From an uncultured Methanomicrobiaceae archaeon (GTDB taxonomy: Archaea > Halobacteriota > Methanomicrobia > Methanomicrobiales > Methanoculleaceae): 64,000 nt of DNA. The position numbers and the translations under genes were made by a program. This document shows positions 5,529-14,225 of this stretch, piece by piece. The notes under the pieces were generated by a model. It was not told the origin of the DNA and searched no databases. It was given only the letters and a program-made list of their open reading frames with translations. The stretch lies in NCBI GenBank assembly GCA_963826525.1, contig CAWGXH010000005.1, forward strand, positions 192,001 to 256,000. Reading direction: 5' to 3'. The number at the start of each line of letters is the position of its first letter. Positions within the stretch are counted from its first letter, which is position 1.

Positions 5529-5585
5529 AGGTCTCCTCGAATAATTATATAGGGTAAAATGGATATAAAGTTCTTTGCGAGAATC

Positions 5586-6083
5586 ATGCAATGTGAATTA
5601 TGCGGCGCTCCTATCCACGGACCGTCAAAGACAGTCCAGGTTGAAGGTGCAGAACTCTGTGTATGCATCAAATGTGCAAAATACGGTAAGGAAGTCCAGC
5701 AATCACGGCGAGGCGGTGCTCCTGTGCGAAGGCCGGGAACACCGGCGGTCTCGACGCCGCAGCCCCGGAGAAGGCCGAGGGATGTCTTCGACCTGATCGA
5801 GGGCGATATCGTCGATGACTACCGCGAGCGGATTCGCGCTGCCCGGGAGGAGAAGGGATGGTCTACACTGGATCTTGCTCACGCGACGAAAGAGCGTGAG
5901 ATCCTGATCAAGAAGATCGAGAAGGGCGATCTCATTCCGGAGGACGCCGTTCGGAAAAAACTCGAGCAGGCGCTCGGCATCAAATTGATCGACTCCGCTG
6001 CCGACGAGACCGAGTCCCGCGGCGGCGGCAGAATGACGACGACCGTCGGGGATGTCATCTCCTTTAAGAAGATCCGGAAGTAA
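5586..6083 (+). CDS. mbf1: Archaeal multiprotein bridging factor aMBF1
   Basis: N-terminal Zn ribbon CELCG..CIKC, Cro-type HTH, and C-terminal TVGDVI motif. Divergent from pan. Confidence 0.92.
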
Positions 6084-6190
6084 CCGGCAGGAACAGAGTC
6101 TTTTTCCGGAAACAATAGAGCAGCGTCGATCGTTATCGGGAAAGGGTTGTGTCCCTTTTCCCCTCGCCATTTCTCATCCTGCGTGCTTAC

Positions 6191-6200
6191 CTTTTTATAG
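6191..6200 (+). promoter_or_regulatory. Putative TATA box of the aro operon leader
   Basis: CTTTTTATAG ends 24 nt before the ATG at 6224, the spacing expected for a leaderless archaeal transcript. Confidence 0.55.
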
Positions 6201-6223
6201 ATGGACGAAATATGATATTACCA

Positions 6224-6271
6224 ATGCGTGGTGAATGTTTTTTCGCCGGTGAATGCTTTTATCACTGGTAG
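6224..6271 (+). CDS. Putative aromatic-amino-acid leader peptide MRGECFFAGECFYHW
   Basis: ATG CGT GGT GAA TGT TTT TTC GCC GGT GAA TGC TTT TAT CAC TGG TAG: 3 Phe, 1 Tyr and 1 Trp in 15 codons, upstream of the aro/tyr/phe operon. Confidence 0.7.
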   Translation: MRGECFFAGECFYHW

Positions 6272-6455
6272 CGAAGGATCCATCCGCCGTGCAGGCCTGA
6301 ACAACGCACTTCTTCCGCAGGTTCACTCCACTACCGGATGGTGCCTGCCTGTTTGCAGTTATTTCCGCTTTTTTAGCACTTTTAGTTATTATCCCCGGAA
6401 CTGAAGCGTAATTCTACACCAGAATCGCTGACGTGCCGGATGAGGAGTTCTGATT
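6261..6455 (+). promoter_or_regulatory. Putative attenuator / structured 5' leader with alternative helices and U-tracts
   Basis: CTGGTAG (6265-6271) can pair with CTACCGG (6331-6337). CCATCCG (6280-6286) can pair with CGGATGG (6335-6341), which overlaps and so is exclusive. T6 at 6369-6374 and T4 at 6380-6383. SD-like GAGGAG at 6442-6447. Confidence 0.5.
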
Positions 6456-7247
6456 ATGAGAGGAAAAGAAATTCGCATGGAACGTATCATGGATCGTAAT
6501 ACCGGAAAGACCATCATCGTACCGATGGATCACGGTGTAACGGTCGGGCCAATCCCGGGACTGATAGATCTAGGAAAGACCATCGACCTCGTGGCGGGGG
6601 GCGGGGCAAACGTGGTGATCGGGCATATGGGGCTTGCCCTGCATGGTCACCGGCGGCACGGCAGAGATGTCGGGCTCATCCTCCACCTCTCGGCGAGCAC
6701 CGCCGTCGGACCCGACCCGAACGATAAGGTGCTCGTCAATACCGTCACGAACGCCCTCAAAATGGGGGCGGACGGTGTCTCGGTGCACATCAATGTCGGT
6801 GCGAACTCGGAGGCCAAGATGCTCGAAGACCTCGGACGGGTGGCGATCGAGTGCATGGAGTGGGGGATGCCGCTGCTTGCGATGATGTACCCCCGCGGTG
6901 CGAAGATCGCGGACGAGCACGACGTCGAACACGTCAAACTCGCCGCCCGGGTGGCGGCGGAGCTCGGCGCCGATATCGTCAAGACCGTCTACACCGGCGA
7001 TCCCGACAGTTTCCGCGAGGTCACGCGGGGGTGCCCGGTCCCGGTGGTCGTCGCCGGCGGGTCGAAGACCGACGATATGGCCATCCTCGAACTGATCGAG
7101 GGGGCGATGGAGGGCGGTGCTGCCGGCATCTCCATCGGGAGGAATGCGTTCCAGCATCCCGCTCCGGAGAAACTGATAAGGGCTGCGGCGCTCATCGTAC
7201 ACGAAGGAAAACCGGCACACGAAGCAATCGAGATCCTGAGGGCGTGA
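6456..7247 (+). CDS. aroA': 2-amino-3,7-dideoxy-D-threo-hept-6-ulosonate (ADH) synthase, DhnA-family aldolase
   Basis: PMDHG, ADGVSVHINVG, MMYPRG, ELGADIVKT (Schiff-base Lys), GRNAFQH. Confidence 0.9.
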   Translation: MRGKEIRMERIMDRNTGKTIIVPMDHGVTVGPIPGLIDLGKTIDLVAGGGANVVIGHMGLALHGHRRHGRDVGLILHLSASTAVGPDPNDKVLVNTVTNALKMGADGVSVHINVGANSEAKMLEDLGRVAIECMEWGMPLLAMMYPRGAKIADEHDVEHVKLAARVAAELGADIVKTVYTGDPDSFREVTRGCPVPVVVAGGSKTDDMAILELIEGAMEGGAAGISIGRNAFQHPAPEKLIRAAALIVHEGKPAHEAIEILRA

Positions 7248-9850: not shown

Positions 9851-10644
9851 CCCTCCTGACACTCGGCCCTGCCGGAACTTTCAGCCACGAGCTCGCCCTG
9901 CGGCTCTACGGCGACGATATCGAACTTCTCCCGACGATCGGAAAGGTCATCGAATCGGTCGCCTCCGGCACGGCGGACGGCCTCGTGCCGATCGAGAACA
10001 GCGAAGCCGGCGGTGTCGGCTCGACCCTCCGGGGGCTCCAGGATGCCGGGGTCTTCATCGTCGAAGAGGCGTACCTGCCGATCCGTCACCATTTCGCAGC
10101 CCGGTGCGATCCCGGCGATCTTGCCGTGATCTATGCTCACCCCCAGACCCATGAGCAGTGCAGCGTGTTTCTCGACCGACTCGGGGTCGATGTCGTGCAT
10201 ACCAGCAGCAACGCGGCGAGCGCGCTTGCCATGCTCGAGCGTGAGCGTGCCGGGGCGATCGTCTCCTCGAGTGCCGCGGAGATCTACTGCCTTCCGGTTA
10301 TCCGGCGGGACGTGCAGAACAGCATGCAGAACGTCACCCGGTTCGTCCGGATATCGGCGACTCCGCGGGACGAAGCGGGCTGCACCAGGTGCAGCATCCT
10401 CGTCGACCCCGCTACGAACCGGGCAGGTCTGCTCCACGACATTCTCGGGGTCTTTGCCGTCCGCTCCATCAACTTAACGAGGATCGAGTCGCGGCCGTCC
10501 CGGCGGGGGATGGGGCGGTACGTCTTCTTCATCGACTTCGATCTCGCGCCCGGGTGGGAGGAGGCGAGGGAGGAACTTCGGAGAATGACCACGGTGAAGG
10601 AACTCGGCTGCTACTCGAGGAGGGAGATGCCGGCATGGACGTAA
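9847..10644 (+). CDS. pheA: Prephenate dehydratase with ACT domain
   Basis: LGPAGTFSH, VPIENSEAG, NVTRF, NLTRIESRPS, YVFFID. ATGA overlap with tyrA. Confidence 0.93.
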   Translation: MTLLTLGPAGTFSHELALRLYGDDIELLPTIGKVIESVASGTADGLVPIENSEAGGVGSTLRGLQDAGVFIVEEAYLPIRHHFAARCDPGDLAVIYAHPQTHEQCSVFLDRLGVDVVHTSSNAASALAMLERERAGAIVSSSAAEIYCLPVIRRDVQNSMQNVTRFVRISATPRDEAGCTRCSILVDPATNRAGLLHDILGVFAVRSINLTRIESRPSRRGMGRYVFFIDFDLAPGWEEAREELRRMTTVKELGCYSRREMPAWT

Positions 10645-11904
10645 CCGTCTCCCGGAGTCCCGCGGTGGACCTGACGTTCGCTGCTCCTCCCTCGAAGAGC
10701 TATACGCACCGGGCGCTGATCGCCGCCTCGCTCGCCTCGGGCCGGAGCCGGATTTGCCGCCCGCTCGATGCCGACGATACCCGGCTGACCGCCCGGGCGC
10801 TCCGGAATCTCGGCGTTCCGGTCGACTGGCAGGGCAGCGAGATCATCGTCGACGGAACCGGCGGGGAGCTCCCGACCGGAGATCCGGTCACGCTCGATTC
10901 CTCGGCAACTCCGGGACGAGCCTCCGGCTTCTCTCCTCGATAGCCCTCGTATCGCCGCGTCCGGTGGTGCTCACCGGGAACCGGCGGATGCTGGAGCGGC
11001 CGCTCGGGCCGCTCGTAGAGGCGCTCCGTGCCCTCGGCGGTGAGGCCGTCTACCTCGGGAAACCCGGCTTTCCCCCGATCCGGGTCGAGGGGAGGCTTGC
11101 CGGCGGGACGGCCGTCGTCGATGCAAGTATGAGCAGCCAGTTCATCTCGTCGATCCTGATGGCCGCTCCCTGTGCCGACGAGGACGTCGAACTCGAAATC
11201 CCGGAGATGCCCGCATCCCGGTCGTACCTCGACGTGACGGTCGACGTCATGGAGGCGTTCGGCGCACGGGTCGAACGGGACGGGTATACCCGCTTCCGGG
11301 TGCGGCGCGGCACCCGCTATACCGGCAGGGAGTACACCGTCGAGGGCGACTACTCGTCGGCCTCCTACTTCTTTGCCGCGGCGGCTATCTGCGGCGGCAC
11401 CGTCCGTGTGAACCACTTAAGCCCCGCATCGGTGCAGGGCGACCGGCGGTTCCTCGACGCGCTCGAAGCGATGGGGTGTCTCGTCGCGTCATCGGTCGAT
11501 ACGGTGACCGTCACGCGGAAGGGCGAGCTCTCCGGCATCACCATCGATATGTCATCCGCCCCCGATACGGTGCAGACGCTCGCGGTCGTTGCGGCCACGG
11601 CAGCGACGCCGACGACGATCACCGGGTCGGGCACCTGCAGTACAAGGAGAGCGACCGGATTGGGATCACGGCGGAGATCCTGCAGAGGATGGGAGCCAGT
11701 GTCTCGGTCGGCACCGACCGGATCACCATCACCCCGGCCCCGCTCCACGGCGTGGTCGTCGACCCGGTCGACGATCACCGGACCGCCATGAGTTTCGCCG
11801 TCCTCGGCCTCGGGGTCGGCGGAATGACGATCCGGGATGCGGAGTGCGTCGGCAAGTCGTTCCCCGGGTTCTGGGATGCCCTCACAGAGGCGGGACTGCT
11901 ATGA
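10635..11904 (+). CDS. aroA: EPSP synthase (frameshifted)
   Basis: APPSKSYTHRA, GNSGTSLR, SSQFISS, EGDYSSA, KESDRI and DDHRTAM spread over three frames. Confidence 0.92.
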
Positions 11905-13226
11905 AGATCGTCCTCGTCGGTTTTCGGGGCACCGGAAAGACGGCCGTCGGACGACGGCTTGCCGGCCGCTTCGGTCTTCCGTTTGTCGATACCGACGCTG
12001 TAATCGAGGAGAAGGCGGGCATCGCCATCCCGGCGATCTTGAGCGGTGGGGCGAAGCGGCGTTCCGGCGTCTCGAGCGGGAGGTTATCGCGTCGCTCCGG
12101 GACTGTGACGGTGTCGTCAGCACCGGCGGCGGGGCGGTCATCGACCCGGCAAACGTGGAGAGCCTTCGCCGGAACGGGACGGTCATTCTGCTAACGGCAG
12201 ACCCCGCGGTCATCGAGGAGCGTATCCGGGGCAGCGACCGGCCGGGGCTCACGTCCCTCCCGCTTCGGGACGAGATACGGGAGATGCTCGGGCAGAGACG
12301 GGTTGCCTACATGAGTAGTGCCGACGTCTGCATCGATACCGGCTCGCGCAGCGTGGAGGAGACCGTCGAACAGATTGCAGCCCTGCTCACGGCGCTGCCC
12401 GACGACCTCCTTGTTCCCGATGATCTTGCGGCGGTGCGAAAGCGCGACCCGAAGATCCGGATTTGCGGCATCGCCGGCAACCCCTGCTCGCACAGCAGGA
12501 GCCCCGCTCTCTACAACAGGCTCTTTGAGCACTACGGTTTACACTACTATTACACGAGGTTCGAGTGGCCCGCAATAGAACCCATCGTCAGGCTCGCACG
12601 CGCCCTCGACGTTCGGGGACTCTCCGTCACCATTCCGTTCAAGCAGGATATCATCCCGTTCCTGGACGAGGTCGACGCGGACGCGGCCGCCATCGGCGCG
12701 GTAAATACGGTCGTGCAGTGCGGCGGAAGGCTGCATGGGTTCAATACCGACTGGCTCGGGGTGAAGATTCCGCTCGAGCACCGGCGGGGAGCACGGGCGG
12801 TCGTGCTCGGTGCGGGAGGTGCGGCGGCGGCGACGGTCTATGCACTCCGCGACCTCGATATGGCGGTGACCGTGCTGAACCGGACTCCCTCGAGAGCCCG
12901 CCTCCTTGCGGAGCGGTTCGGGTGCGCGTGGGGAGGGCTCGACGACTTCCGGGGAGGAGACACCGATGTCGTCGTCAATACGACCTCGGTCGGGATGGAA
13001 GATGCGGGGCGGAGCCCTCTTCCGGCGGACCGGCTCGAACGGGGGATGACCGTCTTCGACCTCGTCTACACGCCCCCCGAGACGAAACTCATCCGGGAAG
13101 CGCGGCTTGCCGGCTGCGAGGCAATCCCCGGCACCGAGATGTTCGTCCACCAGGCCGCCTCCGCAGTTCCGCCTGATCACCGGCATCGCCGTGGAGGCAG
13201 AAAGCGTGCGGGAGATGATGCAATGA
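11901..13226 (+). CDS. Bifunctional P-loop shikimate kinase / shikimate dehydrogenase (frameshifted)
   Basis: GFRGTGKT..DTD..GEAAFRRLE..STGGG (AroK), followed in one frame by HSRSP..SVTIPFKQ..GAVNT..NTDWLG..GAGGAA..DLVYTP (AroE). Confidence 0.88.
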
Positions 13227-14225
13227 ATACGTTTGGGAGAAACTTTCGGGTCACGACATTCGGAGAGAGCCATGGAAAGGCGCTCGGAGCCGTCATCGAG
13301 GCTGCCCTCCCGGTATCGCGCTGACCGAGGCGGATATCCAGCCCTACCTCGACAGGAGGAGGCCGGGCACGAGCAGCCTCGTCTCTCCCCGCAGAGAGGC
13401 GGACAGGATCGAGATCCTCTCCGGCACCTTCGAGGGCGTCACGACCGGGACGCCGATCGCTCTTGTCGTCTATAACCGGAATCAGGAGTCCGGCGACTAC
13501 GATGCACTCCGCGACATTTCCGTCCCGGTCACGCCGACTACTCGTATGCCGCGAAGTCCGGTATCCGCGACCACCGTGGAGGCGGGCGGAGTCCGCCGGG
13601 AGACGCTCTCCCGCGTCGCGGCAGGCGCGGTTGCGGCGAAGTGCCTCGAGCGCTACGGCATCGGTGTTGCCGGGCGGATCTGTGAGATCGGCGGAGAGAC
13701 CACCCTCGAGGGAATGGAAGAGGCGATCCGCACCGCACGGCAGGAGGGCGACTCCGTCGGCGGGATCGTGGAGGTCGTCGTCTCCGGGTGTCCGTCGGGG
13801 CTCGGCGACCCGGTCTTCGGGAAACTCGACGCAATGATCGCCGCCGCCCTGATGGGTATCGGTGCGGTGAAGGGCGTCGAAATCGGAGCCGGTTTCGCCG
13901 TAGCACGGATGCGCGGGAGCGAGAATAACGACCCGATCACCCCGAAGGATTCGCTGGCAATAACGCCGGCGGCATCCTCGGCGGGATCAGCACCGGTCAG
14001 CCGATCGTGGCCAGGATCGCCGTCAAGCCCACGCCCTCGATCGAAAAAGAGCAGACGACGATCGATACGGCTGGAAATGAGCGGCGGATACGGATACATG
14101 GCCGCCACGACCCCTGCATCGCGGTGCGGGTCGTGCCGGTCGCGGAGTGCATGCTGGCGCTCGTGATCCTCGACGCTCTCCTCGAGCAGGAGAAGTACCG
14201 CGGTTTCGCCGTGAGAAAAGAGTGA
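13223..14225 (+). CDS. aroC: Chorismate synthase (frameshifted)
   Basis: [53 protein letters not shown]. Confidence 0.93.

Follow-up and report, generated by a model that had tools for sequence, protein, structure and literature searches.

This study concerns the leader of an aromatic amino acid operon in a 64,000-nucleotide (nt) stretch of DNA from an uncultured Methanomicrobiaceae archaeon, hereafter called the window (positions 192001-256000 of contig C5 in the source assembly, G000). Based on profile matches, the operon encodes two ADH synthases (2-amino-3,7-dideoxy-D-threo-hept-6-ulosonate synthases), DHQ synthase II, tyrA, pheA, aroA, aroK-aroE and aroC. Upstream of the first ADH synthase gene lies a TATA box, followed by an open reading frame (ORF) of 15 codons in which a 13-nt unit, GGTGAATGYTTTT, occurs twice (6230-6242 and 6248-6260). 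A spacer of 184 nt, with a run of six T at 6369-6374, separates the TAG of this short ORF, which ends at 6271, from the ATG of the gene at 6456. A first-pass annotation of the window had proposed that the short ORF is an upstream ORF (uORF) by which ribosomes sense Phe, Tyr and Trp, and everything it stated about the sequence itself, namely the uORF coordinates, the TATA spacing, the duplication, the spacer length, the T6 tract and the downstream aro genes, was correct. In the following, the frame of the leader ATG is called frame A and the +1 frame is called frame B, and the short ORF with its duplicated unit is referred to as the cassette. The coordinates of the features are collected in Table 1.

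Table 1. Features of the leader and of the first operon gene, in window coordinates, with the type II loci found among relatives.
Feature	Position	Strand	Remarks
TATA box of leader promoter, TTTTTATA	6192..6199	+	24 nt between TATA box and ATG 6224
Frame-A short ORF, MRGECFFAGECFYHW	6224..6271	+	15 codons plus TAG 6269-6271; presumed 5'-terminal ATG
5' hairpin domain (predicted)	6225..6293	+	-26.7 kcal/mol, z -2.37; 3/200 shuffles as good
Frame-B (+1) long ORF	6228..6404	+	58 codons from GTG; open from one base after ATG to TGA 6402-6404
Repeat unit 1	6230..6244	+	GGTGA, 4 nt, putative slippery TTT (6239-6241), Phe codon TTC (6242-6244)
Repeat unit 2	6248..6262	+	GGTGA, 4 nt, putative slippery TTT (6257-6259), Tyr codon TAT (6260-6262)
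Aromatic tail, YFRFFSTFSYY	6360..6392	+	TAT TTC CGC TTT TTT AGC ACT TTT AGT TAT TAT; includes T6
Post-leader hairpin (predicted)	6395..6439	+	-15.5 kcal/mol, z -1.12; ends 2 nt before GAGGAG
Shine-Dalgarno-like GAGGAG of first ADH synthase gene	6442..6447	+	8 nt before ATG 6456
First operon gene, ADH synthase	6456..7247	+	NF005556 382 bits, TIGR01949 337 bits
Type II loci			L024, L028; L036, L126-L128; L131, L132; L133-L135; L115-L118 (Methanospirillum); L119, L120; L122; L042 (G000 C7 copy)

For comparison, we assembled the 450-nt regions ahead of orthologous ADH synthase genes at 109 loci in 107 genomes, all from one order (Methanomicrobiales), which accounts for its entire class in the genome sample, and spread over six families. 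The set covers the genera Methanoculleus, Methanofollis, Methanolinea, Methanoregula, Methanospirillum and Methanocalculus, together with Methanocorpusculaceae. A frame-A homologue of 14-26 codons, with the same ATG at the same distance from the TATA box, was found in 89 of the 109 loci, many more than chance would give; the uORF is thus conserved among orthologous leaders and survives the refutation test that the first-pass annotation had set. The leader ATG is unchanged throughout the 48 distinct cassettes, and the nucleotides of the short ORF are nearly invariant across Methanomicrobiales families whose ADH synthases share only 73-88% identity. Of 104 distinct promoter contexts, 88 have a TATA-like 8-mer that begins 30-32 nt upstream of the leader ATG, and in 103 its start falls 29-34 nt upstream. 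Given this fixed spacing, the promoter geometry predicts a 5' untranslated region of 0-3 nt, that is, a leaderless mRNA. An alternative in-frame ATG at 6212, 12 nt upstream of 6224, is present in the window and is not conserved.

The strongest aromatic signal, however, lies outside the uORF, at the end of an overlapping ORF in frame B (6228-6404). In the window, the C-terminus of this long ORF reads ...CSYFRFFSTFSYYPRN, and the ORF closes 51 nt upstream of the ADH synthase start. In 45 of a first set of 49 loci, the ORF whose C-terminus is most aromatic is shifted by +1 from the conserved ATG and open from at most one base after it, and in the remaining four the ATG itself reads in frame to the tail. 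Between the leader ATG and the tail stop, these 45 loci (2363 codons) contain no stop codon in frame B and 104 and 140 in the other two frames; for single loci, frame B is open in 7-43% of shuffles. Frame B is also open in all 89 loci that combine a frame-A ORF of 14-26 codons with a long +1 ORF, which we term type I. The middle of the long ORF is hypervariable in sequence and length, with 118-277 nt from ATG to stop, and despite this variation the type I +1 frame always closes 33-127 nt before the gene.

The tail of the long ORF is conserved in composition throughout the order. An aromatic-tailed ORF is present in 109 of 109 loci, with at least 5 of the last 12 codons specifying Phe, Tyr or Trp in 104 loci and 3-4 in the other five. 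Across 46 distinct tails, these three residues account for 47% of the last 15 positions (Phe 26%, Tyr 18%, Trp 4%), against background levels of 6.8% for the long ORFs of G000 and 5.5% for the middle part of the leader ORFs themselves. Codon choice is similarly skewed: Phe is encoded by TTT in 75% of cases and Tyr by TAT in 99%, whereas in the adjacent ADH synthase genes of the same 29 loci these values are 13% and 3%. Because TAT leaves T runs unlengthened, this bias points to selection for slow, wobble-read codons rather than for oligo-T terminators. The 58-residue product has no match in Pfam or NCBIfam and its exact sequence is absent from about 15 billion called proteins; gene callers miss the long leader ORF, which is of consequence for annotation.

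From these features, we consider it probable, at roughly 70-80%, that the spacer serves as the translated leader of a leaderless aro-operon mRNA through which the ribosome would gauge the supply of Phe, Tyr and Trp. What survives of the first-pass proposal is the ribosome-sensed leader as such, which is conserved, apparently leaderless and rich in codons for the end products. The assignment of sensing to the 15-codon uORF does not survive, since the aromatic signal is strongest in the tail of the overlapping frame, and the uORF would instead be an entry cassette. The Phe codons at its slippery positions in frame A can also be Leu (CTT), so that an aromatic-rich peptide alone does not account for the conservation of the uORF. 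As for the output, we see an even chance that it would be translational, exerted through the post-leader hairpin.

The duplicated unit of the cassette twice places a putative slippery codon before an aromatic one. At 178 of 178 sites in the 89 type I loci, the frame-A codon is TTT or CTT and is followed by T. The next codon at site 1 specifies Phe in every locus (TTT TTC in 66, TTT TTT in 14 and CTT TTC in 9), and the next codon at site 2 specifies Tyr in every locus (TTT TAT in 50, CTT TAT in 22, TTT TAC in 15 and CTT TAC in 2). In two type I loci, a further CTT TAG stands at the stop. Upstream of each slippery site, the sequence over 9 nt is NGTGANNGY (ATGA in some), which places GTGA, complementary to the 3' end of 16S rRNA, 4 nt upstream. 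Three repeat units are found in two loci of the Methanoregulaceae type (L095 and L096), where a degenerate unit with TCT TCC (Ser-Ser) precedes the Phe unit and the Tyr unit.

Substitutions among the 48 distinct cassettes reveal constraints on both frames. The A-site codons after the slippery codons vary only synonymously in frame A (C43/T5 and T35/C13), and the same base changes are non-synonymous in frame B (Ser/Leu and Ile/Thr). Where the slippery codon begins, T and C alone occur (45/3 at site 1 and 43/5 at site 2); this first base is the four-fold degenerate third position of a frame-B Val/Ala codon, yet it is restricted to these two bases, while the third base of a nearby frame-B Pro codon shows all four (G39, A4, C4, T1). 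Either T or C permits +1 re-pairing on UUU: tRNA-Phe would match perfectly, and tRNA-Leu would form a G-U pair, as it does at the CUU_U of prfB. Variable columns are commonest at the third positions of frame A (8) and of frame B (7), as expected for dual coding. We rate at just short of even the chance that the cassette consists of two tandem sites at which an empty A site, awaiting Phe-tRNA or Tyr-tRNA, would favor a +1 slip. A -1 shift on T_TTT_TTC was rejected as a productive route, as the -1 frame stops two codons later at TGA 6250-6252. The third frame of the cassette holds a mini-ORF (6235-6252; ATG TTT TTT CGC CGG TGA, MFFRR*) whose start follows the TGA of the first GGTGA and whose stop is the TGA of the second; it has an ATG or GTG start in most standard cassettes and is absent from those of the Methanoregula type.

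Natural variants of the leader dispense with the cassette. In about 19 loci from at least seven genera (type II, Table 1), the cassette has been lost, the leader ORF and tail have been kept, and the ATG shares the frame of the tail. At the N-terminus, several type II ORFs have frame-A residues followed by frame-B-like ones (MCGEC-VLPV, MCDGC-LPA, MCGES-LPVV and MRGECF-LPV), and a fusion of frame A to frame B at the first repeat would yield exactly such N-termini. One further locus (L114) has the tail and an ambiguous start, and was counted in neither type.

We further analyzed the predicted structure of the leader RNA. The 5' hairpin is closed by a helix between 6225-6233, a strand that includes the TG of the start codon, and 6285-6293, a short way 3' of the frame-A stop; slippery site 2 falls in the apical loop. 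The same closing helix appears in the consensus of the Methanoculleus group, where 4 of 39 predicted pairs show a compensatory change, and in that of the Methanoregula group, where 2 of 16 do so. When the first 14 nt were paired with the strand that follows the stop, 88 distinct type I leaders gave a mean duplex z of -1.57, with values below -2 in 33 and below -1 in 61. In a strand-swap test, the mean energy of a 5' end was -10.8 kcal/mol with its own 3' strand, -10.7 kcal/mol with strands of the same second-codon class and -8.5 kcal/mol with those of other classes. The cognate strand was better than the other-class median in 60 of 66 distinct standard cassettes, a result behind which lie few independent events, as the classes follow clades. 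Among 14 type II leaders, the start codon was at least partly paired in minimum free energy (MFE) folds, and the duplex z was below -2 in only 3.

An order-wide RNAalifold run on a MAFFT alignment returned 0 pairs, the arms being too divergent, and for this reason subgroup alignments and the strand-swap test were used. Across 40 cassettes from the different genera, RNAalifold returned only a local GGTGAA/TTCGCC hairpin with no compensatory change. In the window, this hairpin (6230-6235 with 6242-6247) would enclose slippery site 1; its changes are one-sided, and it competes with the closing helix.

Downstream of the leader stop, hairpins are predicted in nearly all relatives, with arms that differ between genera (mean MFE z -1.53; below -2 in 16 of 49). 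Compensatory pairs number 3 of 14 predicted in the Methanoregula group and 6 of 9 in the Methanolinea group, the latter with a weak consensus energy. In most loci the leader stop lies 0-5 nt before the 5' arm of this hairpin or within it, the last codons being aromatic, and in many genera the 3' arm overlaps or abuts the ribosome-binding site. The consensus folds are two separate hairpins, with no mutually exclusive terminator and antiterminator helices. A scan for bacterial promoters and terminators on the + strand at 5900-6700, which does not cover archaeal promoters, found nothing in the spacer. With E values up to 10 admitted, an Rfam cmscan found three matches, all at chance level and to unrelated families, the best with an E of 3, and none to a leader, T-box or riboswitch family; for T-boxes and riboswitches this covers curated families, and no search aimed at novel tRNA-binding motifs was made.

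Combining these elements, we propose the following course of events. Transcription would start at ATG 6224 or within about 3 nt of it, and ribosomes would load on the 5'-terminal ATG. The functional path would run for about 59 codons to TGA 6402-6404 and end in a run of rare, wobble-read TTT and TAT codons for Phe and Tyr, with Trp in some cases. In type I loci (this genome and 88 other loci), a ribosome could follow this path only by changing to the +1 frame within the 15-codon ORF. Under a shortage of Phe-tRNA or Tyr-tRNA, the A site would stay empty at TTT_TTC (6239-6244) or TTT_TAT (6257-6262), and the P-site tRNA could re-pair in the +1 frame. When Phe and Tyr are both plentiful, the ribosome would end at TAG 6269-6271, and the 5' hairpin (6225-6293) would close over the start codon. 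Slipped ribosomes would translate through the 3' strand of this hairpin and so keep the start codon free. Ribosomes in the long frame would stall in the aromatic tail, which adjoins the post-leader hairpin and the ADH synthase gene's ribosome-binding site, and a parked ribosome would keep that region open and raise translation of ADH synthase and the later operon genes. In type II loci, which lack the cassette, the tail alone would be the sensor.

Read in this way, the type I leader may be a two-stage sensor, a proposal that we advance tentatively and at somewhat less than even odds. In the first stage, hungry Phe and Tyr codons after slippery codons would divert starved ribosomes from the 15-codon decoy into the long frame; in the second, with similar reserve, translation of the long frame would unzip the start-codon hairpin, reach the aromatic stall tract and switch the operon on. 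Sensing of a free amino acid in the manner of TnaC was considered and rejected, as it would have the wrong sign for a biosynthetic operon, and models based on termination or polarity would suffer from the same problem.

The long ORF might also be reached without any frameshift, if translation started separately at GTG 6228 or 6231; the 15-codon ORF would then be a decoy or modulator, and stalling in the tail would still do the sensing. A frame-B GTG is found in every standard cassette, 4-7 nt from the ATG and within the conserved GGTGA. In Methanoregula-type leaders the aligned codon alternates between ATG and GTG, both of them start codons, and in L090 an ATG of frame B precedes the usual one by 5 nt, near the 5' end. 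With such codons close to the 5' end, the long frame could start independently, and variation is free at the four-fold sites of frame B (Pro and Ser third bases), as in a coding frame. Separate starts leave unexplained the invariant ATG at the presumed 5' end, the duplicated unit with Phe and then Tyr after a slippery codon in 89 of 89 loci, and the limitation of the slippery first base to T or C. They also leave unexplained that type II ORFs start with frame-A residues (MCGE...) and not with frame-B ones. We regard this alternative as unlikely, although it is a serious contender. Further points besides these start codons count against a regulated frameshift and a translational switch. GTGA stands 4 nt before the slippery codon, compared with 3 nt in prfB. 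In E. coli, pheL is reported to show 15% +1 frameshifting, apparently incidental (PMC3082878). The post-leader hairpin of the window itself is weak (z -1.12) and leaves GAGGAG free. Sequestration of the ribosome-binding site is unsupported among the 91 loci compared, a test that left out 13 loci with spacers above 100 nt: the pairing probability was 0.60, against 0.62 with shuffled upstream sequence, and p was at most 0.1 in 10 loci. Runs of at least five T in 54 of 105 distinct tails also leave room for a transcriptional component. The genomes are kin, so locus counts are not independent events and few independent changes stand behind each count. In addition, aroA and aroC look frame-broken in the window, and the frame-fused leader copy on contig C7 of the same assembly may thus be an assembly error.

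The sensory translated leader that we favor can be set against three accounts that dispense with the long frame as a sensor. In the first-pass annotation, the 15-codon uORF was the sole sensor, and stalling on it was to control intrinsic termination at the T6 and T4 tracts downstream. Conservation of the uORF, its F, F, F and Y codons and the T runs of the tails are compatible with such transcription attenuation, and because the start codon lies in the 5' hairpin, ribosomes might load only during RNA synthesis, coupled to the polymerase. The tracts taken for terminators are nevertheless in-frame Phe codons of the tail (TTT TTT at 6369-6374 and a further TTT), in an ORF that is open in all loci; half of the tails have no T5, two aromatic positions of the uORF can be Leu, and neither mutually exclusive helices nor a terminator-like hairpin with a T run was found on the + strand. 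A ribosome stalled at least 100 nt upstream would moreover leave naked RNA, a situation in which known polarity systems lower expression, the wrong sign here. Transcription attenuation is therefore improbable in our view. If the ORFs were incidental and the repeats and the 5' hairpin bound a protein, tRNA or small molecule, as an operator, T-box-like or riboswitch-like element, the near-invariance of the cassette nucleotides across families with 73-88%-identical ADH synthases would be expected, as would direct repeats just downstream of the promoter and a hairpin that displays Phe and Tyr codons in its loops. Such an element cannot explain the open +1 frame over a hypervariable middle, the aromatic tail or the TTT/TAT bias, nor does it sit well with the roughly 19 loci that keep leader ORF and tail without the cassette, with variation that peaks at the third positions of frames A and B, or with the best Rfam E of 3; we judge it quite improbable. 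That the long ORF encodes a functional small protein of about 58 residues, with an aromatic C-terminus and no regulatory role, appears hardly credible: the ORF is open and conserved in position, but its middle varies greatly in sequence and length, its tail keeps its composition and not its sequence, profile and called-protein searches found no counterpart, and its place is always immediately ahead of the aromatic operon.

In bacteria, the use of leader peptides by which ribosomes sense amino acids is textbook knowledge. In E. coli pheL-pheA and trpL, a short translated leader with end-product codons precedes the biosynthetic operon, and the ribosome senses charged tRNA. The archaeal leader is similar in that an ORF enriched in end-product codons stands ahead of a biosynthetic operon. 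Unlike these systems, it has no terminator/antiterminator pair, no hairpin followed by a U run and no Rfam match; it appears to be leaderless and hence without a Shine-Dalgarno sequence, the polymerase is archaeal, and the regulatory codons come last in a path of 40-90 codons, whereas the bacterial ones sit within a peptide of 14-30 codons. The cassette, in turn, resembles prfB (RF2), which is autoregulated by a +1 frameshift at CUU_UGA with an upstream Shine-Dalgarno-like stimulator. The two share a YUU_U P-site codon, a purine-rich upstream element complementary to the anti-Shine-Dalgarno sequence, and relatives without the shift that read in frame; as in prfB, a slow next codon would be the signal, its slowness here depending on starvation. 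In contrast to prfB, tRNA charging would be sensed at a Phe or Tyr codon, where prfB senses its release factor at a stop codon; GTGA stands at 4 nt instead of 3 nt, there are two tandem sites, and the product would be a leader peptide instead of an enzyme.

The tail has a parallel in bacteria. Polycysteine short ORFs on leaderless mycobacterial mRNAs are described as Cys-responsive translational attenuators with operon-level control (10.1101/834739). As in the account given there, the mRNA is leaderless and its first ORF is short and rich in end-product codons, and our proposed tail-stall step follows the model put forward for those ORFs (10.1101/834739). Unlike the mycobacterial case, the present leaders are archaeal, concern Phe, Tyr and Trp, and have their codon run right at the C-terminus; in most loci there is, in addition, a two-frame entry cassette together with a hairpin predicted to sequester the start codon, and sequestration of the ribosome-binding site is statistically unsupported. 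In ermC and in cat/cmlA, a ribosome stalled in the leader is thought to destabilize a downstream stem-loop and thereby permit translation of the next gene (PMC5118997, PMC5499644). A leader-stalled ribosome would likewise open a stem-loop for the next gene here, with the difference that the ermC and cat stall depends on drug and peptide, while the present one would stem from a lack of charged tRNA. With respect to recoding in archaea, the demonstrated cellular frameshift described in PMC8211752 is the -1 event of Saccharolobus fucA1, and a +1 event is suggested there for a haloarchaeal virus. Full-text literature searches found no paper on amino acid sensing by leader peptides or uORFs in Archaea.

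Judged from sequence comparison, the element probably works like bacterial leader-peptide and stalled-ribosome attenuators but without the classical defining features of the terminator type, and a regulated +1 frameshift and a start-codon hairpin are possible features that would be new relative to known attenuators. The comparative evidence is unusually dense: it draws on 107 genomes from six families and includes a frame kept open over a hypervariable spacer, a codon bias of extreme degree and variants that naturally read in frame. If true, the two-stage sensor would be new to any domain of life, and Archaea would have in it their first described case both of a programmed +1 frameshift under amino acid regulation and of control by a leader peptide. 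Should the frameshift reading be right, recoding would gain a regulatory use that is new, and the leader would be a naturally occurring sensor of tRNA charging; if only the tail stalling holds, leaderless archaeal mRNAs would carry sensory upstream ORFs.

To examine the distribution of the element, we searched more widely. A degenerate 18-mer of the repeat was found in 34 of 401 genomes in a sample of the phylum, 32 of them within the order, whereas a reversed control pattern gave 2 hits. The 18-mer occurs once per genome except in G000, where it occurs twice (contigs C5 and C6), and the hits outside the order (G290, where it lies inside an apparent long open frame, and G178) were set aside, as they look like chance. 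A search of G000 with nhmmer for further cassettes recovered only the three aro-leader copies (C5, C6 and C7), in addition to weak hits in apparently long open frames. In genomes from other families of the phylum, 0 of 20 had at least 6 aromatic residues in the last 12 codons of an ORF ending within 250 nt of the best ADH synthase homologue, which may not be the first gene of its operon there. Near misses among these 20 were two loci with 5 (L149 and L151) and one with 7 at -261 in an AT-rich spacer (L147). For leaders of other amino acids in G000, a first genome-wide screen was swamped by Arg-rich spurious frames, and a stricter screen (TATA, ATG and an amino acid-rich tail) gave 12 candidates, none convincing, under settings that would also miss the aro leader itself.

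The source assembly is 3.06 Mb in 16 contigs, with 87.6% completeness and 5.3% contamination. It holds two more copies of the locus, on contigs C6 (L041) and C7 (L042), each at about 12070-12870, with ADH synthase genes that are 100% and 97% identical, respectively, to that of the window. The C6 leader differs by a few substitutions, one of which converts an Arg codon of the tail to Trp, and its +1 frame stays open; in the C7 leader, one base is missing after the T run relative to the window, which fuses the ATG frame to the long frame. The three copies may reflect a mixture of strains, given the contamination, or an error of assembly. Within the operon, the aroA profile match is split between two frames that overlap (10389-10943 for residues 3-83 and 10754-11791 for residues 72-321), and in the aroC region (13233-14166) the ORF at 13546-14166 spans only profile positions 180-263. 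These breaks are likely frameshifts or assembly indel errors, and arguments from single-base indels in the source genome are weakened accordingly. Upstream, on the same strand, lies a gene for aMBF1 (multiprotein bridging factor, 5559-6083), with the leader promoter about 110 nt past its stop; the upstream regions of several relatives end in sequence that resembles the aMBF1 C-terminus, and synteny therefore seems conserved.

Finally, short ORFs were also observed 100-200 nt before ADH synthase homologues in bacterial loci from Desulfobacterales, Syntrophobacteraceae and Desulfobacteraceae (L214, L221, L222, L225, L228, L229 and L235). These ORFs contain an internal aromatic run (e.g., ...RRFFYFYWVYYY...) followed by 8-10 more codons, and by their sequence they look like classical aromatic leader peptides placed before the same archaeal-type entry enzyme.

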